From the IMG/VR virus record IMGVR_UViG_2541047926_000011: DNA of 21,689 nucleotides; one strand, given 5' to 3'. A program made the translations under genes and the position numbers. The notes under the pieces were generated by a model. It ran no database searches, was not told the DNA's origin, and worked only from the letters and a program-made list of their open reading frames with translations. Numbering within the stretch: position 1 is the first letter of the stretch; the number at the start of each line of letters is the position of its first letter. Source of the DNA: a virus. Its lineage: Duplodnaviria; Heunggongvirae; Uroviricota; Caudoviricetes. Of the stretch, positions 2,203-11,741 are shown one piece after another.

Positions 2203-2406
2203 ATGAGCCAGAAAACAGCCAACCACGAAAACCGGGTGCGTGAATGTAACAATATTCTGGACACCCATTTAAAAAATATGCAAACGGGATTCATGATTCG
2301 CACCAATAGCGGCGAGTTTATTATCAGGGATAAAAAGCTGATTAAGAAAATAACCAAAGACGTGGCGCGCCATGTTGATGGTGAATTGCTTAAATTGGGA
2401 ATGTGA
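2203..2406 (+). CDS. Hypothetical early protein, 67 aa
   Basis: ATG at 2203 with GAGG 8 nt upstream, just after the cox stop; the longer ORF from 2026 overlaps cox and is rejected. Confidence 0.5.
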   Translation: MSQKTANHENRVRECNNILDTHLKNMQTGFMIRTNSGEFIIRDKKLIKKITKDVARHVDGELLKLGM

Positions 2407-2416
2407 GGGGGCTTTT

Positions 2417-2623
2417 GTGGCTGTGCAATTAATACAGTTAAGTCGTCACTCATATTTATATCGTGGCTTCACGATTCAAAAGTGCCCGCGTAATCCATTT
2501 ACGTTTAAGCACTCTTATCGTATTTCCAGTAATGGCGATTATTACGGGCGTGACTTTGCTTTAGCGGAAGCCATGCGCACGGTTGATCAGATGTATAAGC
2601 AAGGGGGCAGTAATGCACGATGA
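2417..2623 (+). CDS. Hypothetical early protein, about 68 aa, start uncertain (GTG)
   Basis: GAGGGGG just upstream of an in-frame GTG at 2417; its stop overlaps the next ORF start, suggesting translational coupling. Confidence 0.4.
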   Translation: MAVQLIQLSRHSYLYRGFTIQKCPRNPFTFKHSYRISSNGDYYGRDFALAEAMRTVDQMYKQGGSNAR

Positions 2624-2843
2624 AGGCCCATCACTGGCAAGCCTGCTTAAGCACGGGTGCCAGGTTACACACTTCAAAAACTCACGCGGCTGGCTGGAAA
2701 CACCAGACGGGAAATTCTTTAAACCTGAGCCTGGCAAGGTTCAATTTATTAAGGGAATGAGTAAGCCCTTTGTTTATATGAAGAAGATAAACAAAGGATT
2801 ACTTTTTAACTTTGTTAATTCTTTGAGAAATTTAATCGGCTAA
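2613..2843 (+). CDS. Hypothetical early protein, 76 aa
   Basis: ATG at 2613 preceded by AAGGGGG; overlaps the stop of the upstream ORF. Confidence 0.45.
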   Translation: MHDEGPSLASLLKHGCQVTHFKNSRGWLETPDGKFFKPEPGKVQFIKGMSKPFVYMKKINKGLLFNFVNSLRNLIG

Positions 2844-2885
2844 CAACGCCAGTTAAATAGTAATTAAAAACAGTCTTCACTGTCG

Positions 2886-2901
2886 TCACTTAATTAAGTG
2901 A
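2886..2901. promoter_or_regulatory. Perfect 16-bp palindrome TCACTTAATTAAGTGA in an AT-rich gap about 35 bp upstream of the TerB-like gene; candidate operator or promoter element
   Basis: Read directly from the sequence; the surrounding stretch 2844-2936 is AT-rich and non-coding. Confidence 0.4.
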
Positions 2902-2936
2902 TGGCGCTTTCACTCATCCTAAAAAGGATAAATAGC

Positions 2937-3371
2937 ATGTTTAATAAACTGTTTGGAAAAAAAGTAGCAGCGGCAAAAGTTGAACTTAAGAAAGTAGAAA
3001 ATCGCGATCTGATGGAAGCTATTGTCGGCGGTTGCCTTTTGGTATCTGCCGCCGATGGCGAGATCGAAAAAGAAGAAACCAGCAAGCTGGATCAGCTTAT
3101 CCGCTCTAACCCGCGCCTTGCGCATTTCGGCAATGAGATCACATCCACCATCAACCGCTATACGGAACAGCTTGAAGCTGGCTTCCGCGTTGGCCGCATG
3201 AACATTTTGCGCGAAATCGACGACATCAAAAACGATCCGAAAGAAGCCGAAGAAGTCTTCGTCAACATGCTGACTATCGCCGAAGCGGACGGCCAGATCG
3301 AACCAGAAGAACAGAAGGTGCTGGAAGAGGTCGGGCGCCGTCTGGGGCTGCGTGTTGAGGATTATCTCTGA
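2937..3371 (+). CDS. TerB-like (tellurite-resistance TerB domain) protein, 144 aa
   Basis: Two acidic helical motifs, AADGEIEKEE and EADGQIEPEEQKVLEEV, as in TerB; AAGGA Shine-Dalgarno 8 nt before the ATG at 2937. Confidence 0.65.
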   Translation: MFNKLFGKKVAAAKVELKKVENRDLMEAIVGGCLLVSAADGEIEKEETSKLDQLIRSNPRLAHFGNEITSTINRYTEQLEAGFRVGRMNILREIDDIKNDPKEAEEVFVNMLTIAEADGQIEPEEQKVLEEVGRRLGLRVEDYL

Positions 3372-3809: not shown

Positions 3810-4781
3810 ATGATCCGCCCGTTCATCAAATGGGCAGGGGGTAAAACCCGTGTCCTCCCTGACCTGCTGCCGCATCTTCCTAAAGCCGACTGCCTGATCG
3901 AACCGTTCGTAGGCGGAGCATCGGTATTTCTGGCGACTGAATACCGCCGCTATGTGCTGGCTGATATCAACCCGGACCTTATTAACCTGTATCGGGAAGT
4001 CACTCGTTACCCGGACTTAGTGATCGATGCGGCCCGCGAACTGTTCAACAGTAAGAACAGCCCGCAGGGATACAACGAAGTCCGCGCCGCGTTCAATAAG
4101 CAGGTGGGTACGGTAAAAAGCGGTGGGTTGCGTTATGGCGCTGAAATGGCGTGCATTATGCGCGCTGCTCAATTCCTGTATCTGAATCGCCACGGCTATA
4201 ACGGCTTATGCCGATACAGCTGGAAGACCGGCTTTAACGTGCCGTTTGGCAAGTATAAGAGCGTCTACTTTCCTGAAAATGAAATATGCCTGTTTGCCGA
4301 AAAGGCCAACGATACAAAGGCAATATTTCTTTGCGCGCCGTTCCAGCGTTCTCTACAGGTCGTCACGGGTGGCGATGTTCTCGTTTACTGCGATCCGCCT
4401 TACCTGCCTGAAAGCAAAACAGCCGATTTTACCCAATACCACACCGAACCATTCACGGAAGACAACCACCGCCAGTTAGTCCAGGCACTGCTGGAAGTTA
4501 ACCGTAAGCATGGCGTGAAGGTCGTCATTTCCAACAGCGACACCGAAGCCACCCGCGCGATTTATCAGCCCTTCAAGATGCACGAAATCAGCGTGCAACG
4601 TTCCGTCAGCACCAACAAAGACAACCGGCAGAAGGCCAAAGAAGTGATCGGCGTGCTGCCTGTCTGCGACTGCTGCGGGCGTTATGGCGGCGGTTGCCCT
4701 GATTGTGGCGCCGTGATGGGTGATGCGACTTACAACGCGATGGTTGCGGCGGGCGAGTTTGACGATCAGGAGGCTTTTTAA
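3810..4781 (+). CDS. dam: DNA adenine methyltransferase (Dam family, N6-adenine, probably GATC-specific) with a Cys-rich C-terminal extension
   Basis: N-terminal FIKWAGGK motif, catalytic DPPY motif, and collinear resemblance to E. coli Dam (LYLNRHGYNGLCRY); about 45 extra C-terminal residues containing CDCC...CPDC. Confidence 0.9.
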   Translation: MIRPFIKWAGGKTRVLPDLLPHLPKADCLIEPFVGGASVFLATEYRRYVLADINPDLINLYREVTRYPDLVIDAARELFNSKNSPQGYNEVRAAFNKQVGTVKSGGLRYGAEMACIMRAAQFLYLNRHGYNGLCRYSWKTGFNVPFGKYKSVYFPENEICLFAEKANDTKAIFLCAPFQRSLQVVTGGDVLVYCDPPYLPESKTADFTQYHTEPFTEDNHRQLVQALLEVNRKHGVKVVISNSDTEATRAIYQPFKMHEISVQRSVSTNKDNRQKAKEVIGVLPVCDCCGRYGGGCPDCGAVMGDATYNAMVAAGEFDDQEAF

Positions 4782-4960
4782 TGAATCTTATAGACGCCTG
4801 GATCGTTGAAATCATAAGCGTGAGTTGCGGCGAGATTGTGCCGTATTGGTTGGTTGAGGCGAAAGTAACAGCTTATGGAAGGGAGTCAATAACCACAATT
4901 CTGAAGAAATCAGAAGAGGAAGCCAAAGCCGTTAAAGTAGGGGATGTAGTTCAAATATGA
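4781..4960 (+). CDS. Hypothetical small protein, 59 aa, absent from the ORF track (below its length cutoff)
   Basis: ATG overlaps the dam stop (TAATG) with CAGGAGG 7 nt upstream; stop TGA overlaps the A start (ATGA); translation MNLIDAWIVEIISVSCGEIVPYWLVEAKVTAYGRESITTILKKSEEEAKAVKVGDVVQI. Confidence 0.45.
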   Translation: MNLIDAWIVEIISVSCGEIVPYWLVEAKVTAYGRESITTILKKSEEEAKAVKVGDVVQI

Positions 4961-7332
4961 CCACGGAAACCCGTGGCCGTCGCGCCCCTTCTCCACCTCC
5001 ACCGTATCCGGGTAGCACTGACAATGCTATCCCTTACGCTTATGGGGGAAACAAACCATACCAGCCTATTGGCGTTGATGTAGCGCCGGGGCTGGATGGT
5101 TTCGACTATCTCACGCCGGACGGCACGCGTAAGCATATTGCGTTCAGTGAACTGGTAGCGGAAGACGAAAAGCCGGAGCGCAGCAAGCTGCTGCGTCGCC
5201 GTCTGGCTTCACTTCCGCAGTATATCCGCCGCCACTTTGCCGCGAAGCTGGATGCACTGGACGCGAAAGACCGCAAAGCGGCAGATCACTGGCTGGTTAA
5301 TACCTTTGAGCGCCACGTATTAACGCGAATTGATAGTGTGAACAGTGTTTACCAGCCTGACACTGTGATGCCCGGCATTCTGCTGCCAATCCGCGATCAG
5401 CTGTTCCGTATGCTCTGGGCAGGGAAGAAAGAGTTAAAAAGACTGGCTTATACGCTTGCCGATATCTTTACGAGCGAGTTTATACGCGAGTCCGATCACC
5501 AATTGGCACGCACCGGAGATCCTGAGTTCGCGGCGCTTTCTGGCTATGGCCGTATTGCGTCGCTGGCGGTGCATCTGAAAACTCCGATCCCCGGCTGGAC
5601 GGCGTATTGCAATGAAGAACTGGAAGCGGAGGACGCGTTACGCGCGGTTCTTCGCCTTGAGTCACCGCAGTGGTGGTTAAACCGCCTGCGCCGTATCCAT
5701 GCCCGGTGGCGTGAGCATTTGATGATCGCTGCGGGATACGTCCAGAAAAAATCTTTCCCATACAGTAGCGCCCCGTGCCTTACGGAATGGTTGGCCCAAA
5801 AAAAGGCTAACCGTGAATACCTTAAGGCTATGGAACTGGAAGACCAGGACACGGGCGAACGCATTTCACTGATCGATAAAGTCGCCGGTAGTGTTGCCAA
5901 TCCGGCCAACCGTCGCCGCGAACTCATGACGAGAATGCGCGGATTTGAAGATCTGGCGAAGCTGGAAGGGCTGGCCGGTGACTTCTACACGCTGACAGCA
6001 CCTTCCCGTTACCACTCCATGCAGCATAACGGGCGCCGCAATAATAAATACTGTGGCGCATCGCCGCGCGAGACGCAGCAATATCTTTGCAAAGTCTGGG
6101 CGAGAACCCGCGCAGCGTGGAAGAGAAAAGGGATCCGCGTCTTTGGTTTTCGCGTGGTCGAACCGCACCACGATGCAACGCCACACTGGCATTTACTTCT
6201 TTTTATGCGCCCGGAATGCGTCGAGCAGGCGCGCGAAATCTTCCGTAAATATGCCCTGAAAGAAGACGGCAACGAACCGGGAGCGCAGGAAAACCGCTTT
6301 CAGGTTGTGCCGATCGATGATGCCCACGGCAGCGCAACCGGCTACATAGCGAAATACATTTCGAAGAATATCGACGGCTTCGCGCTGGATGGTGAGAAGG
6401 ACGACGAAACCGGGGAAGACCTGAAAGAAATGTCACTCCGCGTTAGCGCGTGGGCATCGCGCTGGGCTATTCGTCAGTTTCAGCAGATCGGCGGTGCACC
6501 GGTCACGGTATATCGCGAACTTCGCCGCCTGGGCGATCGCGAACTGGTGTTACACCCTGAACTGGAAACCGCCCGGCAGGCCGCTAACGGTGGCGAATGG
6601 GATAACTACGTATTAGCCCAGGGTGGCCCGTTGGTTGAGCGCGATAAGCTGCGCATCCGTCTGAATTATGAAACCACTGAAAACGGCAACGCCTACGGCG
6701 ATAACGTCCAGCGAATCACCGGTATCTATTGCCCGATTACGGGCAATGACTCTTTGATCTTCACCCGCACCACTAAATACAAAATCGTGCCGAAGCGCCA
6801 GAGCGCTGACGGTGTGGCCGTTGACGTTGGTTTTTCAGGCGGCAGCGCCGCCCCTCGGAGTTCTGTCAATAACTGTACGCGGGATCCCGCAACAGGTGCT
6901 GACGGTCTTGAACATGCCGATCACGAAGTGGGCGAGACGGTGAATTTTGATGCTCTTTCACGGCAAGAAAAGCGGGAACTGGCGCAGCGATTAAGTGACG
7001 ATGTACGCGCCAAGCGGAAAACGCGGCCACCGGAACGGGAACGGGAAGAGGAAGCAGGGCTATCAGTCAAAGAGCAGCAGATCAGTGAACTGCTGGAGCT
7101 ACGTGGGATTGATGCAAGCGCCGGAATGGTCAGATCGATGATGGCCGGTGCGTCAGTGGCGTGCGGTGATCTTGTTATGACCGTGCAGGACGGGCGGTTG
7201 GTATCGCGCAACCGCGCCGCATCCGGGCTGGATAAGCTGCCGTCACAGGTGATGGCAGCGAAGAAAAAGACAAGCGACCTTGTGAACAGGATGAAGGCAG
7301 CGTTTAAGGGCCATTTATTAAATGAGATATAA
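4957..7332 (+). CDS. A: Rolling-circle replication initiation endonuclease (P2 gpA-like)
   Basis: 791 aa; HUH-type motif TPHWHLLLF and active-site tyrosine motif GYIAKYISKN; positioned before the variable locus as in P2. Confidence 0.9.
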   Translation: MTTETRGRRAPSPPPPYPGSTDNAIPYAYGGNKPYQPIGVDVAPGLDGFDYLTPDGTRKHIAFSELVAEDEKPERSKLLRRRLASLPQYIRRHFAAKLDALDAKDRKAADHWLVNTFERHVLTRIDSVNSVYQPDTVMPGILLPIRDQLFRMLWAGKKELKRLAYTLADIFTSEFIRESDHQLARTGDPEFAALSGYGRIASLAVHLKTPIPGWTAYCNEELEAEDALRAVLRLESPQWWLNRLRRIHARWREHLMIAAGYVQKKSFPYSSAPCLTEWLAQKKANREYLKAMELEDQDTGERISLIDKVAGSVANPANRRRELMTRMRGFEDLAKLEGLAGDFYTLTAPSRYHSMQHNGRRNNKYCGASPRETQQYLCKVWARTRAAWKRKGIRVFGFRVVEPHHDATPHWHLLLFMRPECVEQAREIFRKYALKEDGNEPGAQENRFQVVPIDDAHGSATGYIAKYISKNIDGFALDGEKDDETGEDLKEMSLRVSAWASRWAIRQFQQIGGAPVTVYRELRRLGDRELVLHPELETARQAANGGEWDNYVLAQGGPLVERDKLRIRLNYETTENGNAYGDNVQRITGIYCPITGNDSLIFTRTTKYKIVPKRQSADGVAVDVGFSGGSAAPRSSVNNCTRDPATGADGLEHADHEVGETVNFDALSRQEKRELAQRLSDDVRAKRKTRPPEREREEEAGLSVKEQQISELLELRGIDASAGMVRSMMAGASVACGDLVMTVQDGRLVSRNRAASGLDKLPSQVMAAKKKTSDLVNRMKAAFKGHLLNEI

Positions 7333-7344
7333 TTAGCCAAAAGC

Positions 7345-7366
7345 AATGGCGCCATGAGGCGCCATT
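7345..7366. terminator. Hairpin (9-bp stem AATGGCGCC / GGCGCCATT, 4-nt loop) between convergent gene A and the 370-aa gene; probable bidirectional terminator
   Basis: Read from the sequence; T-rich tracts flank it on both strands. Confidence 0.5.
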
Positions 7367-7382
7367 TATGGGTATGTTTTAA

Positions 7383-8495
7383 TTATCTTCTCAAACGCTT
7401 CTGTCGTTTAGCTTCTAACTGAGCAGAAAATTTTCTTCCCGCTTTGAACTGTTCAGATGAAAGAGGTTTACTGTTAAGTTGATATGTACGTGCCCTTACA
7501 ATCAACTGAGACATGGAAGGAGATATCACGAAATCATTGAGATGTTTTTTTAGTCGTTCTAGAGCTTTTTTTCCTTCATCAGTAATCAAGTCTCTTTGCA
7601 GCATCCACAAAAAAACATCTACAGCTTGCAGCGCTGGATGACTTTCTGAACTTCGAAGATCGAATTTACCTAAATCGAATTGAGCCTCCTCAAAAAGAAT
7701 TGGGCCCCCCAAATCGTCCTCTACATGATCGATTTTATGAAAAATGCGGTGATATTCTCTCATCGTCCCGCGAAACTCGTCGCTTCTGTCATGGATCAAT
7801 TCTTTTACGGAAGAGGAATGCTTTTTACAGAAAGAATGTGTAGCCCCCATCAGACTAGAAAAAGCAACCATATTAGGCGTTTGGCCTTTGTAGGCGCTTT
7901 TCCCATGGGTACAAATTAAGGTGAATTCGTCAGGGTGGCTGATCGCGTAAGTTAAACCATCAGTCATAACTTCTTTCATTCGCGGATCTAGTATGCGGTC
8001 AATTCTTGAAAGTGCAATTTCCGCAACTTGAAGCATTTTTGGCATGTCGTCGCTCAGGAAACCATCCCAAAAAGCCTTGTTATCTTCATCGGACAAGATA
8101 TCTGCCATACCTAAGCACATAGCATGTCTAAATAATTCGGTGTTGTACCACAAGACCGGGACGCCAGGATTATCAGCACTATCAAAAAACAGATCAACAA
8201 ACTTGGTTGGTGCGAGATAAGGTTTGTGAATAACGCAGAGTGAAAATTCCCAAGAGGTATTTTTAAGTGCATCAAGAAGATCTGAGCAAATTACTGAAAC
8301 AACATGCTCTTGGTGTTCATTTGAGTGAAGACGCGGAACGCCTAAAGCCTTGCAGTGCCGCTGGACAACTTCGTTAATGATAGGATCAACGTCACCATGA
8401 GAGATTATCGCCCCCTGAAAGTATGTCGGTGATCTCTCGTCAAAAATATTGCGACCTGAATGTCCAGATTCATCAGCATAAACATAAACGTCCAT
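7383..8495 (-). CDS. Hypothetical 370-aa protein of unknown function; cargo at the A-cos variable locus; N-terminal YADESG motif (possibly DUF3800-like)
   Basis: Single uninterrupted ORF with AAGGAA Shine-Dalgarno before the ATG; visibly lower G+C than its flanks; convergent with A; basic C-terminal tail (KRQKRLRR). Confidence 0.75.
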   Translation of the reverse strand: MDVYVYADESGHSGRNIFDERSPTYFQGAIISHGDVDPIINEVVQRHCKALGVPRLHSNEHQEHVVSVICSDLLDALKNTSWEFSLCVIHKPYLAPTKFVDLFFDSADNPGVPVLWYNTELFRHAMCLGMADILSDEDNKAFWDGFLSDDMPKMLQVAEIALSRIDRILDPRMKEVMTDGLTYAISHPDEFTLICTHGKSAYKGQTPNMVAFSSLMGATHSFCKKHSSSVKELIHDRSDEFRGTMREYHRIFHKIDHVEDDLGGPILFEEAQFDLGKFDLRSSESHPALQAVDVFLWMLQRDLITDEGKKALERLKKHLNDFVISPSMSQLIVRARTYQLNSKPLSSEQFKAGRKFSAQLEAKRQKRLRR

Positions 8496-8748
8496 AACGG
8501 TTCCTTCTAAATTGTCATAGTTAGTTGCAATAAATACTATTACGGTTCATGGCGTTATCTATACATGATTGGCTTATTTTCGTCCATTTTGCTTAGAAAA
8601 AAATGAGCTTTAGACGTTCAGAATTCAACGCACAAATTGGAGCAAAATTGCACAAATTTTATGATGGTGATTTTCTCAGGGCAGACCAGGCGGGGTGGGC
8701 CTTCCGGTGGTCTGCACATTTGCACAAAAAAGCGGGGTTTCTGCGTGC

Positions 8749-8767
8749 GGGCGAGGCGGGGGAATGA
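8749..8767. other. Probable cos site (cohesive-end region), GGCGAGGCGGGGGAATGAG
   Basis: Its first 12-13 nt match the P2 cohesive end as I recall it (GGCGAGGCGGGGAAAGCAC); lies between the variable locus and the Q 3' end, as in a P2 prophage. Confidence 0.5.
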
Positions 8768-8870
8768 GCGCGCGCTGAGGGGTGGGATAGGGTCGGTATT
8801 ATCTGCGCCGATTTTCGCGCCGCTGCGCCTCGCTGCTGCGTCGTTTTCGGTTCGCCGTGGTGGGTTGAGG

Positions 8871-8908
8871 AAAAAGAAAAGCCCCTGCCAGCAGGCTGCT
8901 GAGGGGCT
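8871..8908 (-). terminator. Rho-independent terminator downstream of Q (minus strand)
   Basis: GC-rich hairpin AGCCCCT...AGGGGCT with an internal CAGCAG/CTGCTG stem extension, followed on the minus strand by TTTCTTTTT. Confidence 0.45.
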
Positions 8909-8978
8909 TACGTGCGGTGTGGTCAGTTATGGCCGTGTAGGCCTTTGCGCGGTGGTGGTGGGTGTGTCCGGGCTGGCG

Positions 8979-10028
8979 TCAGATTGCTGCCTGCAACAGT
9001 GCGTAAGGGTTGAAGCGCACCACGTCGATCCCCAGCCAGTCGTTTAACTCTTTCAGGCTTTCTTGTATCGGGGCCAGTTCGTTGATGGAAAACACCTTCG
9101 CCGCTTTCTCTACGTCGCCGAAGCCACCGGAGTTATTCGGCATTACCCCCATCAGAACGGGCGGCACGCGGTGCGCGGCTAACAGGTCGTCGCGGGTGGC
9201 GTCTTTGATGCCGGTAAACTCATCCTTCGCCGCCACCTGGCTGAACGGCATAATTTGCAGGCCGTCTTTTTTCCCGCCCGCCGCGTAGACAAACAGGTTT
9301 TTAAAAGCACCGTTGCCGCGTGCATCTTTCAGCGACTTCTTAAGCTTTTCCACATCGTTATTATTCGCCACCGGGTCAGTGAGGTAGACGATCACACCCG
9401 CATGACTGCCGTTAATGTAGTAGTTGCGGCGGAACACCGTTGCTTCACCGTTCAGCATGGCGCTTTGTAGCGCGGCCAGATATTCCGGCGCACCGTAGAT
9501 CTCCTGGTGCGGGCTGGGGTTCTTGATCTGGCAGACGCTGCCCGGTTCGAACGCGTGATCGTCAACGTAGCGCGGAACAAACCAGAATTGCGCCGGGTCT
9601 ATGCCGCGCCGCGTATATTTTGCCTGGCTGTGCCGCAGCTCGATCGGCTGGCCGAGTCGGTTGCGGCGGCATTCCATGTAACAGTTACCGAAAATTAAAT
9701 AATCCTGCACCCAGGCGGTGAACTCCTGCCGGGTCAACAGCGGGTGCGGTATGTAGCAACTGGCGATAACATTGCGTTTAAATATCAGCGGTGACTGGTG
9801 ATAGGCGGCAACGTCGAACATGCGCGCCAGCCCGTAGGGGCTGATCGGTGGTTCATACCAGCGGCCATTGTTATGGCATTCGAGGCACTCCATAAGAGAC
9901 GCGCGATCGTTGACTGCGATCGGGTCGCCAAAGCTGAAAGATTCCACGCTTTCCAGCGGGGTGGCTGCGTTGCTGGCCGTGCTGGCTGGCGCAGCAGTTG
10001 GCGCCCTGAATTTTTTTTTGCCGCTCAA
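8979..10028 (-). CDS. Q: Portal (capsid portal vertex) protein, P2 gpQ-like
   Basis: 349 aa (P2 Q about 344); N-terminus MSGKKKFRAPT; abuts the large terminase gene on the same strand. Confidence 0.9.
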   Translation of the reverse strand: MSGKKKFRAPTAAPASTASNAATPLESVESFSFGDPIAVNDRASLMECLECHNNGRWYEPPISPYGLARMFDVAAYHQSPLIFKRNVIASCYIPHPLLTRQEFTAWVQDYLIFGNCYMECRRNRLGQPIELRHSQAKYTRRGIDPAQFWFVPRYVDDHAFEPGSVCQIKNPSPHQEIYGAPEYLAALQSAMLNGEATVFRRNYYINGSHAGVIVYLTDPVANNNDVEKLKKSLKDARGNGAFKNLFVYAAGGKKDGLQIMPFSQVAAKDEFTGIKDATRDDLLAAHRVPPVLMGVMPNNSGGFGDVEKAAKVFSINELAPIQESLKELNDWLGIDVVRFNPYALLQAAI

Positions 10029-11741
10029 TTAAAACTCCTCCACAAAACTGCCGTTATCGCCGGTCACTTCCGCGCCGATCGGTTCGTTGTAAATGCCCTG
10101 CATAGTTGCCCATGCCAGATCGCCGTGATTGCTGCCACGGGCCCGATCGGACTGGTAGGTAATAACGCCGCCTGCGGTGACTTTACGCACGGTCATAAAC
10201 GACTGTGCGAGATCCATCATTCCGGCGTCGAACTCAAAGCGCCCGGCACGAATGACCATCAACATTTTGAGCACCATCGACCGCTTAAGAACCGGTGAAT
10301 AGTTGTATTTAACCGCCTGCGGGAAGAACTTGATCACCAGTTGATAAACCGCATCGCCGATCCCTGTGCCGTCGATAGCAATGTGCTGCACGTTGTAGCG
10401 GGTGGTGATCTCTTTAATAAATTTGGCCTGCTCTTCGTACTCCATGCCGCGTAACTGGTGGCGTTCTACCGCGCGGAACTTGCCACCCGGCACGGCTGGC
10501 GGGGCCAGCACAACCAGCCCGGCGCTGTCGCCTTTGCCGCTGCTGCCGTTGGGGTCATAGCTAACCCAGACAGGGCGATTACCCAGCGGGCGAGGTGCAA
10601 ACGGGTTCCAGTCCGGCCACGCGTCCGGCATGTAGCCATCAACGCCGCAGCCCAAAATTGTGTTGTAGTCGAAGGCGCGTTCCCCTGCTTTAACGAAGGT
10701 ACATCCGTACAGGTTGGCGTATTCGTCAAGGGAGTTTTCGCTACGGATTTCATCAATATCAACCAGATCGAAACCGAGCTTCATGGCGTCTTCCAGCGTG
10801 ACTATCTGGCGCCAGATGTTATCCCCGCATAGCTTGCCGTTTTTCAGTGCCTTATAACTGGTGTCGATATCCACCCGATCGGATCGGCGGCGGCTTTCAT
10901 TGAACTGATCGCCAGTCCAGAAGGGATAGGCTTCATGTTCTTCACTGGAAGGCGTCGAAAAGTAGGTGCGGCGCAGTCCTTTTTGTGTCGCCATGCCTGC
11001 GGCCACCGAGCGCAGTTTGATGAAATTACTGATCCAGAAGGCTTCATCAAGGTACAGATCGCCGGTGTAGCTCTGGGCCGTCGCGGCGGAGGTGCCGAGA
11101 AAATACAGGATCGCACCGTTGCTTAACTCAATGGCATCACCGCCCTTAAGTTCTACTCCTATTTCCCTTGCCAGCTTCTGAATGAACCGCTTGAACTGGA
11201 ACGCCTGGGCGCGGCTGGCTGACAGGAATATCTGATTATTTCCGGTTTCCAGCGCACGCAACAGCGCTTCGCGGGCAAAGTACCAGGTGGCACCAATCTG
11301 GCGCGATTTGAGGATAAAGCGGTTACGCCGGTTCCACTGTTTGAACCAGCGTTTTTGATGCTCGTATAGCGAATCAAAGATCAGGGCGCGAAGCTGAGTT
11401 ATCTGTTCTTCGGTGAAATGGTTTTTCGGGGTCTTCGCCTTCTTCTCTTTCTCCTGGTCGCGTCGCTCATGCCGTTCAAAGCGGTCAAGCTGGCGCGCCA
11501 GCAGGTCAATTTCTTTAAAGTCCTTCGGGGTTTTGTCGTCCTTTTCCACCAGGCGCAGGTAACGAACGTGCGTGCGATCCTGCACCCGCTGCATGGGGGT
11601 AGCTTTATCCCATTCATAGCGGCGGCGCCAACTGTAGATCGTGTTAATGCTCACCCCGATTTCCTTAGAAATCTGAGTGATGCTAAACGCCTGCCAGTAG
11701 AGGCTTTTGGCTTTTGTGCTGAGGTCTTCGGCTGTATTCAT
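10029..11741 (-). CDS. P: Terminase large (ATPase) subunit, P2 gpP-like
   Basis: 570 aa; N-terminal HTH-like region, central nucleotide-binding region and C-terminal nuclease-like region; divergent from O as in P2. Confidence 0.9.
   Translation of the reverse strand: MNTAEDLSTKAKSLYWQAFSITQISKEIGVSINTIYSWRRRYEWDKATPMQRVQDRTHVRYLRLVEKDDKTPKDFKEIDLLARQLDRFERHERRDQEKEKKAKTPKNHFTEEQITQLRALIFDSLYEHQKRWFKQWNRRNRFILKSRQIGATWYFAREALLRALETGNNQIFLSASRAQAFQFKRFIQKLAREIGVELKGGDAIELSNGAILYFLGTSAATAQSYTGDLYLDEAFWISNFIKLRSVAAGMATQKGLRRTYFSTPSSEEHEAYPFWTGDQFNESRRRSDRVDIDTSYKALKNGKLCGDNIWRQIVTLEDAMKLGFDLVDIDEIRSENSLDEYANLYGCTFVKAGERAFDYNTILGCGVDGYMPDAWPDWNPFAPRPLGNRPVWVSYDPNGSSGKGDSAGLVVLAPPAVPGGKFRAVERHQLRGMEYEEQAKFIKEITTRYNVQHIAIDGTGIGDAVYQLVIKFFPQAVKYNYSPVLKRSMVLKMLMVIRAGRFEFDAGMMDLAQSFMTVRKVTAGGVITYQSDRARGSNHGDLAWATMQGIYNEPIGAEVTGDNGSFVEEF

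Follow-up and report, generated by a model that had tools for sequence, protein, structure and literature searches.

What is a single AT-rich gene doing between gene A and the cos site of a P2-like prophage? The question arises in a 21,689-nucleotide (nt) stretch of DNA, IMG/VR record IMGVR_UViG_2541047926_000011 (the whole stretch is called the window below). The window is a P2-like prophage, running from the integrase through the tail fiber genes, and is 99.9% identical over 21.6 kb to a prophage of Escherichia coli AR_0128 that is integrated next to cpxP. The interval between A and the portal gene is the classic old/tin site and the main defense hotspot of P2 (PMC9122126; 10.64898/2026.02.27.708500), and an earlier note, made from the sequence without database searches, had proposed that the gene is undescribed anti-phage cargo. 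We found that it encodes a long form of the DUF3800 protein family with a predicted RNase H-like fold, that it is solitary, and that its relatives occupy cargo sites of mobile elements, several of them beside defense genes. From this context we infer, with about an even chance of being right, that the protein is a stand-alone RNase H-fold nuclease that excludes competing phages.

The locus is arranged as follows (window coordinates).

4957-7332, plus strand: P2 gene A (replication endonuclease, 791 amino acids [aa]), the left flank of the hotspot; from the open reading frame (ORF) and the RefSeq annotation of the 99.9%-identical prophage.
7345-7366, no strand assigned: hairpin between A and the DUF3800 gene; from a terminator scan, the inverted repeat being 100% complementary.
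7383-8495, minus strand: cargo gene, encoding the long-form DUF3800 protein (370 aa, 42.3 kDa, isoelectric point 6.1), a predicted RNase H-fold nuclease.
8502-8506, minus strand: Shine-Dalgarno-like AAGGA, 6 nt before the ATG; read from the sequence.
8496-8640, minus strand: cargo-specific AT-rich upstream region, the presumed promoter and 5' leader.
8750-8768, no strand assigned: cos site region (GGCGAGGCGGGGG...); the linear records of Salmonella phages SEN4 and SEN5 start at window position 8750.
8979-10028, minus strand: portal gene Q, which with cos forms the right flank of the hotspot; from the ORF and its annotation.

Between the stop codon of A (7332) and cos there is one substantial ORF, the minus-strand cargo gene, which is convergent with A. 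Its product, named "DUF3800 domain-containing protein" (WP_045355548.1) in the RefSeq annotation of the AR_0128 prophage, starts with MDVYVYADESGHSG and ends with KRQKRLRR; its C-terminal helix is basic. The hairpin separating the two genes is a perfect 9-bp repeat (7345-7353 and 7358-7366, with stem AATGGCGCC/GGCGCCATT) with 6 G-C pairs and a loop of 4 nt; on the minus strand, a T-rich tail (GCTTTTGGCT) makes it terminator-like. The G+C content of the cargo gene is 0.416 versus 0.542 for the rest of the window (standard deviation, 0.037 over 1113-nt windows); the lowest of these windows has 0.438, so the gene lies below every other stretch of its size. G+C at third codon positions is 0.364 in the cargo gene, 0.597 in A, and 0.709 in Q. 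The earlier note had thus read the gene, its orientation, the hairpin, the ribosome-binding site, the basic C terminus, and the depressed G+C content correctly. It was also right about the gene content of the interval that it delimited, 7333-8748. One refinement is that the cargo-specific DNA stops short of 8748: similarity to P2-like prophages without the gene restarts at ~8630-8676, and the cassette is therefore ~1.3 kb long, consisting of the ORF with ~50 nt downstream and ~135 nt upstream. Foreign composition at a locus known from the literature as the P2 defense hotspot supports the conclusion that the gene is horizontally acquired cargo.

In one survey, a recognized defense system is present in 49% of P2 elements, or 81% if putative systems are counted, and anti-defense genes were detected in only 28 of 1511 (10.64898/2026.02.27.708500). 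Rousset et al. (2022) catalogued 1,650 gene arrangements at the P2 locus, and the exact protein, WP_045355548, stands in their Table S5 as a lone "hypothetical" (PMC9122126). The word "undescribed" in the earlier note was therefore too broad, but DUF3800 is not among the tested systems in Table S2 of the same study (PMC9122126), nor was it found in the supplements of the 2026 P2/P4 survey or of the mobile-integron screen. The hotspot and the protein were thus already on record; what is new is a stand-alone long form of a domain that has so far been tied to immunity only within retron and CRISPR (clustered regularly interspaced short palindromic repeats) loci. An uncharacterized nuclease in the P2 hotspot would not by itself surprise a specialist. 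Table S5 of PMC9122126 also lists a P2-locus arrangement of StbA, DUF3800, and Plasmid_stab_B (WP_001613283, WP_000654460, and WP_001613284), in which a different DUF3800 protein lies inside a module that the authors regard as plasmid-partition-like.

To which family does the protein belong? The earlier note had associated its N-terminal motif with DUF3800 and suggested a hidden Markov model search. In that search DUF3800 (PF12686) was the sole Pfam match. At 23.5 bits (E = 1e-4) the match is marginal, the curated cutoff being 21, and it covers positions 1-148 of the 149-position profile. These are spread over residues 4-301 of the protein (298 residues), with a helical insertion of ~135 aa (residues ~91-227), and ~70 more residues lie C-terminal to the end of the profile match. 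NCBIfam gave no match for the protein, and PHROGs gave one weak match to a family of unknown function. A word-indexed search of 5.8 billion proteins found 122 relatives, nearly all 370-385 aa long and similar end to end (38-98% identity), in Enterobacterales, Vibrio, Aeromonas, Shewanella, Oceanospirillales, Thermodesulfobacteriota, and Alphaproteobacteria. When 1.84 billion cluster representatives were searched with a profile, 931 clusters (defined at 50% identity) matched at E ≤ 1e-3, of which 238 reached E ≤ 1e-30; nearly all are full-length at ~350-400 aa. To judge from these sequences, the long form of DUF3800 is a small, coherent, and distinct subfamily that is consistently full-length.

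An alignment of 41 of these sequences has 29 invariant columns, among them D8, E9, G11, G14, H57, K91, Y93, K98, N109, R123, H124, N208, H235, D236, Q290, D293, and S329. The DUF3800 family signature is an N-terminal DE and a C-terminal QxxD (Mestre et al., PMC7736814); both are present, as D8-E9 and Q290/D293, and are invariant in the 41 sequences. A profile search of all PDB sequences found no member of the long-form family with a solved structure.

The predicted fold of the cargo protein is RNase H-like and has the topology of type 2 RNase H (RNase HII, H2A, and HIII), the fold to which it is closest. The four invariant carboxylates D8, E9, D236, and D293 lie at places that match type 2 RNase H topologically and may correspond to its four catalytic carboxylates (DEDD). 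Given this fold and an intact set of carboxylates, the statement in the earlier note that the protein lacks recognizable function was too strong. Among the BFVD viral structures there were only two weak DUF3800-like matches. In print, DUF3800 is a predicted RNase H-fold nuclease with links to retron type VII and certain CRISPR loci (PMC7736814, PMC10910872, PMC12669027); Makarova et al. describe it as a nuclease with an RNase H fold, and Mestre et al. modeled the retron-VII DUF3800 on RNase H2. From its predicted fold, the cargo protein can reasonably be expected to act like an RNase H-type two-metal nuclease.

Where do the relatives of the gene reside? We found them in hotspots of mobile elements rather than in housekeeping loci; a broad occurrence outside such hotspots, which the earlier note had named as a refutation of its proposal, was thus not seen. 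An E. coli homolog (70% identity) lies between gpD and ogr of another P2-like prophage, and a Yersinia homolog (66%) lies at a prophage end, after the ogr gene of a P2-like prophage. In Morganella (63%) the gene is in a lambdoid prophage, between rusA and the small terminase gene; in Serratia (88%) it is at the edge of a CP4-like island (CbtA/CbeA, RadC, antirestriction); and in Salmonella (76%) it is in an integrative and conjugative element (ICE), directly after AbiEi/AbiEii. The V. parahaemolyticus homolog is two genes away from a HEPN_AbiU2 gene, and that of V. alginolyticus adjoins the integrase of a prophage-like island. In Vibrio maritimus (L046:5447-17131) the homolog is the third cassette of a chromosomal integron by infC-rpmI-rplT: the ORFs of the array are co-oriented, a truncated intI-like gene lies beside rplT, and a 125-nt array repeat that follows the stop codon of the homolog recurs at 6642-6765 (92%) and 11469-11592 (86%). 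Recent studies, cited as references 4 to 6 in 10.64898/2026.03.17.712381, describe integron cassettes as a reservoir of phage defense. The copy in the window has no integron-type repeat, and its downstream DNA is the A terminator.

Three side observations concern these loci. A home-made attC pattern finder did no better on whole loci than on shuffled sequence and found no repeated attC in six loci; because it was uninformative, the integron assignment is made for the V. maritimus array only. In four further loci (L002, L005, L006, and L033), where no array was detected, imperfect TAAC...GTTA palindromes of 66-91 nt follow the stop codon at a distance of 0-4 nt; as cassette signals they are only suggestive. 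In Serratia ficaria, a 56-nt piece of P2 backbone (L025:7771-7826), 87.5% identical to window positions 8762-8817 between cos and Q, sits 175-230 nt upstream of the gene; because this cos-proximal P2 fragment persists there, the Serratia copy probably came from a P2-like phage.

The neighbors of the homologs bear on what kind of cargo this is. Among the 124 nearest ORFs at 23 species-representative loci were seven very strong PADLOC matches, to UzuA (two), a type IIG restriction-modification system, IetA, IetS, LmuB, and SspH, an enrichment with a binomial P of ~0.003 against an assumed background of 1.5%. The same set held integrases (four), gpA terminases (two), RepA (two), ParA (two), and transposases. 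Long-form DUF3800 genes thus have the generic context of defense genes, with defense neighbors on mobile elements. Independent hints come from what is on record for the domain: retron type VII has DUF3800 as its effector domain, certain class 2 CRISPR loci have it as an accessory, and in Table S3 of DefensePredictor "DUF3800 domain-containing protein" is among the neighbor genes that push predictions toward defense.

A solitary, nuclease-like gene at many intergenic sites, in phages, plasmids, ICEs, and integrons, with homology that ends at the borders of the ORF, would also be expected of a selfish or addictive nuclease, either a toxin that stabilizes its element because the cell suffers when it is lost or deregulated, or a homing-type endonuclease that spreads by cutting empty sites, any anti-phage effect being incidental. 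Toxin-antitoxin pairs do adjoin the plasmid paralog described below. However, no adjacent antitoxin-sized gene and no conserved RNA was found, either in the window or in common among the loci, the insertion sites are cargo hotspots used by many unrelated genes rather than one target sequence, and recombination at attC in an integron requires no nuclease of the cassette's own. In addition, we know of no RNase H2-like homing endonuclease. We consider this explanation quite improbable.

Does the gene have a partner? Clustering of the 124 neighbor ORFs gave no recurring partner gene, in agreement with the single-gene cargo of the earlier note; the only recurrences were small, a GIY-YIG gene in two loci and ParA with RepA in two plasmid-like loci. 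When the window is compared with homologous loci at 63-88% protein identity, nucleotide similarity does not reach beyond 13 nt upstream of the ATG on one side and the stop codon on the other. These results support the conclusion that long-form DUF3800 is a solitary gene with no conserved partner.

The partner could be an RNA. Structured RNAs, namely, DUF3800-I to -XI, drum, and skipping-rope, adjoin DUF3800 genes (Weinberg et al. 2017), and it is conceivable that a noncoding RNA acting as a guide, antitoxin, or activator has gone unrecognized here as well, so that the "single gene" is really a two-part system, as with the shorter DUF3800 genes flanked by the eleven structured motifs. The plasmid paralog has a conserved leader of ~90 nt, which would fit such an RNA. 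There is also a precedent in two other motifs of this kind: HEARO and IS605-orfB proved to be guide RNAs for nucleases with an RNase H fold (RuvC). However, with Rfam 15, which includes the DUF3800 motifs as well as HEARO and IS605-orfB, we obtained no gathering-score match in the window, no relevant match within 7200-9100 even at E ≤ 10, and no gathering-score DUF3800-type RNA in 21 homologous loci. The upstream 145 nt fold no better than shuffled sequence (z-scores of -0.58 and +0.09), and an all-against-all comparison of 400-nt flanks revealed no noncoding block common to the window and the homologous loci beyond the ribosome-binding site. Outside the ORF, the cassette's own DNA amounts to only ~50 nt downstream and ~135 nt upstream. 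An RNA partner is therefore very unlikely in our estimate.

Two marine loci (L004:11219-12055 and L011:8479-9291) have, directly downstream of the DUF3800 homolog, a gene for a 270- to 278-aa protein with a C-terminal GIY-YIG domain (53% identity to each other). In L011 a traJ-II RNA (Rfam, 77.6 bits) lies ~380 nt upstream of the DUF3800 gene.

Taken together, the exclusion of competing phages by a lone nuclease could work as follows. The cassette, acquired horizontally and self-contained, would encode a metal-dependent nuclease of the RNase H superfamily, and the lysogen would produce it from the cassette's own promoter. Upon entry of a competing phage, or perhaps of a plasmid, the enzyme would cut a nucleic-acid structure that the invader makes in abundance. 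The likeliest substrates would be RNA:DNA hybrids (replication primers and R-loops) or structured RNA, because of the fold and because of the family's links to RNAs and retrons. Cleavage would then stop replication of the invader, either directly or through the death of the infected cell. The 135-residue helical insertion and the C-terminal helices may provide substrate selection or autoinhibition and so take the place of a partner protein or RNA. A broader proposal, which we advance tentatively and hold to be possible rather than probable, is that stand-alone long-form DUF3800 proteins form a new family of single-gene, partner-free immune nucleases, in which an RNase H2-like core, gated by a family-specific helical domain, would recognize RNA:DNA hybrids or some other replication intermediate of invading phages or plasmids.

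Several results weigh against a role in phage exclusion. PADLOC had no model at E ≤ 1 for the cargo protein, its retron-VII DUF3800 models included. The enrichment of defense neighbors depends on 23 loci and an assumed background rate, and hotspots also carry non-defense cargo, with partition systems in about one-quarter of P2-like phages as well as toxins (Rousset et al., PMC9122126). Alignment to E. coli RNase HII (RnhB) with hhalign gave a probability of 0.07, and the profile search of all PDB sequences returned no RNase H, only two chance matches, so that the link to RNase H is one of predicted fold only; moreover, Altae-Tran et al. describe the DUF3800 fold as RNase H "with a catalytic rearrangement." A tblastn search of 50,697 deposited phage genomes found no homolog, and the carriers discussed here are therefore prophages and other integrated or plasmid elements. 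We found no test of a stand-alone DUF3800 member in the searchable full texts; the integron-defense screens of Getz, Darracq, and Kieffer lay outside this search, and so a DUF3800 cassette may already have been tested. Finally, a promoter scan found no consensus sigma-70 promoter on the gene strand upstream of the gene, which could for this reason be silent in the lysogen.

This last result raises the question of whether the cassette is simply a passenger, AT-rich xenogeneic DNA that is unexpressed or has no selectable function in E. coli and persists because it arrived recently. Of 5426 complete E. coli genomes, only 5 carry the gene, apart from one copy with 70% identity, and the five copies are 99.9% identical, which would be consistent with recent spread. 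However, the ORF is intact in every copy, and the ~930 clusters of the family are full-length and share some 30 invariant residues, including the putative catalytic set. This conservation therefore indicates purifying selection for function somewhere, although not necessarily in an E. coli host, and we give the passenger explanation only a slim chance.

The protein has a much more common relative on plasmids. Using tblastn against PLSDB, we found a full-length paralog with 27-29% identity in 1,841 records, or 2,551 when the plasmid form was the query, mostly on conjugative IncF, IncI, and IncR plasmids of Escherichia, Klebsiella, and Salmonella (for example, WP_000545983, WP_000545984, and WP_009483870; loci L038-L043, e.g., L043:8001-9134 and L040:9057-10190). 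The paralog passes the Pfam DUF3800 cutoff at 31.6 bits and retains D8, E9, G11, G14, H57, K91, N109, R123, N208, D236, and D293; it has Glu at the position of Q290 and has lost H235. It has no PADLOC match and seems to be uncharacterized. In six plasmid contexts it belongs to a small islet flanked by vapBC and ccdAB/resolvase/repE/sopAB. Its neighbors include the HEPN gene pEK499_p136 with a gene of ~255 aa; DUF4238, a defense gene validated by Rousset et al. (PMC9122126); and a PD-T4-5/Abi_2-like gene.

Two further features of the plasmid loci were noted. An ORF of 94-97 aa annotated as korC, with no Pfam or PADLOC match, often follows the paralog by 16-20 nt (L038:10150-10443, L039:10150-10443, L042:9154-9438). 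The leader of ~90 nt before the paralog (L038, L040, L042, and L043; ~-93 to -1) is 70-88% conserved even where the upstream genes differ. The paralog, its leader, and the korC-like ORF could form a regulatory unit.

Alternatively, the nuclease might serve its own carrier instead of excluding invaders, by removing RNA primers or R-loops when the prophage or plasmid replicates, by aiding plasmid establishment or maintenance, or as a counter-defense against a host system based on hybrids or small nucleic-acid signals. The predicted fold is nearest to RNase H enzymes of replication and repair, the paralog sits in the maintenance region of more than 1,800 plasmids, often with the korC-like ORF behind it, and anti-defense and maintenance genes also occupy cargo sites of mobile elements. 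In Morganella, the carrier prophage has a Tad2-like (anti-Thoeris) gene (L031:12244-12519) ~3 kb from the DUF3800 homolog, and thus defense-like and anti-defense cargo occur within one prophage. However, the plasmid contexts are not those of leading regions: we rejected a leading-region or anti-restriction interpretation of the paralog because its six contexts have maintenance and defense neighbors and no ssb, psiB, or ardA nearby. The scarcity of anti-defense genes in P2 elements (28 of 1511, versus defense in 49-81%) also argues against counter-defense, and at 5 of 5426 E. coli genomes the gene is too rare and patchy in P2-like prophages to meet a need in replication. A role in replication would, in addition, leave unexplained the integron cassette and the AbiE, Uzume, Lamassu, and IetAS neighbors. 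We therefore regard service to the carrier as unlikely, although it deserves more weight than the other alternatives to phage exclusion.

How does a phage-excluding DUF3800 nuclease compare with known systems? Relative to the Pfam family (PF12686), the cargo protein passes the cutoff and has both signature motifs and the RNase H-like fold; it differs in its marginal score, its insertion, and its C-terminal extension. With the effector of retron type VII (DUF3800 or a DUF3800-reverse transcriptase fusion; Retron_VII_2 in DefenseFinder), it shares the Pfam family and a predicted RNase H2-like fold, and both are thought to be defense effectors. Unlike that effector, it adjoins no reverse transcriptase and no msr/msd RNA, its neighbors being A and Q. 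In retron VII proteins, the Q of QxxD is reportedly missing and DEED replaces DEDD, whereas the cargo protein has Q290 and D236. The accessory proteins of Cas12a2, Cas12a3, and some type VI CRISPR loci, in which DUF3800 is combined with tetratricopeptide repeats (TPRs), have in common with it a DUF3800 RNase H-fold domain in an immune context; unlike them, the cargo protein has no TPR (its Pfam match being DUF3800 only), and no cas genes or CRISPR array are nearby. The Old and Tin proteins of P2 and the validated single-gene systems of the P2/P4 hotspots (DUF4238 and TIR-NLR; Rousset et al. 2022) use the same slot, the same logic of exclusion, and the same single-gene architecture, but are unrelated to the cargo protein in sequence and fold. 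DUF4238 genes do, however, sit a few genes away from the plasmid paralog. The plasmid long form is a full-length homolog with the same architecture and is very common, whereas the prophage form is rare.

Specific assignments were also rejected. Membership in retron type VII was set aside on the grounds that the interval holds only one ORF, with no reverse transcriptase, no Rfam RNA, and no match to a PADLOC retron model. Identity with Old (an ATPase-Toprim nuclease) or Tin was likewise rejected, as it had been in the earlier note, since no PADLOC family matched at E ≤ 1 and the sole Pfam match was DUF3800. Nor do the data support assigning the protein to type 2 RNase H (the RNase HII family), since no sequence homology to RnhB or to any RNase H in PDB was detected.

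If the cargo protein is protective, it would add a new type of effector, a stand-alone RNase H2-like nuclease, to the one-gene defenses, and it would reclassify a gene present on ~2.5-3.5% of PLSDB plasmids, among them IncF plasmids of E. coli and Klebsiella. With the paralog on more than 1,800 sequenced plasmids, the family would then rank among the commoner unrecognized defenses of the Enterobacteriaceae. Phage exclusion by the cargo protein would also make DUF3800 accessible to experiment for the first time; its link to eleven different structured RNAs has lacked an explanation since 2017. What the locus adds is a solitary gene, native to E. coli, with a very common plasmid paralog; the substrate of DUF3800 could be learned most simply from such a partner-free member, carried by a tractable prophage. 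If the protein is not protective, it would be a rare uncharacterized cargo gene in a well-known hotspot, catalogued as "hypothetical."

Some features of the window lie outside the cassette. In the DNA to the left of cos that is common to other P2-like prophages (8630-8761) there are direct repeats: GCACAAATT occurs at 8630 and 8650, GCAAAATTGCACAAA at 8642, and GCACATTTGCACAAA at 8714, and a 24-nt pair lies at 8672 and 8738, its second copy overlapping cos. A G+C-rich hairpin (GCAGACCA...TGGTCTGC) is found at ~8681-8715. These repeats and the hairpin may be packaging or terminase recognition elements. For the DNA adenine methylase gene upstream of A (3810-4589), the RefSeq annotation of the 99.9%-identical prophage gives an incomplete pseudogene, and a second, small pseudogene fragment follows it at 4662-4733. 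Another stretch of low G+C content (0.40) lies in the early region at 2401-3000 (also at 801-1800); the genes within 2401-3000 are DUF4761 (2417-2623), Fil (2613-2843), and the start of a TerB-family gene (2937-3371), and this stretch may be additional accessory cargo.

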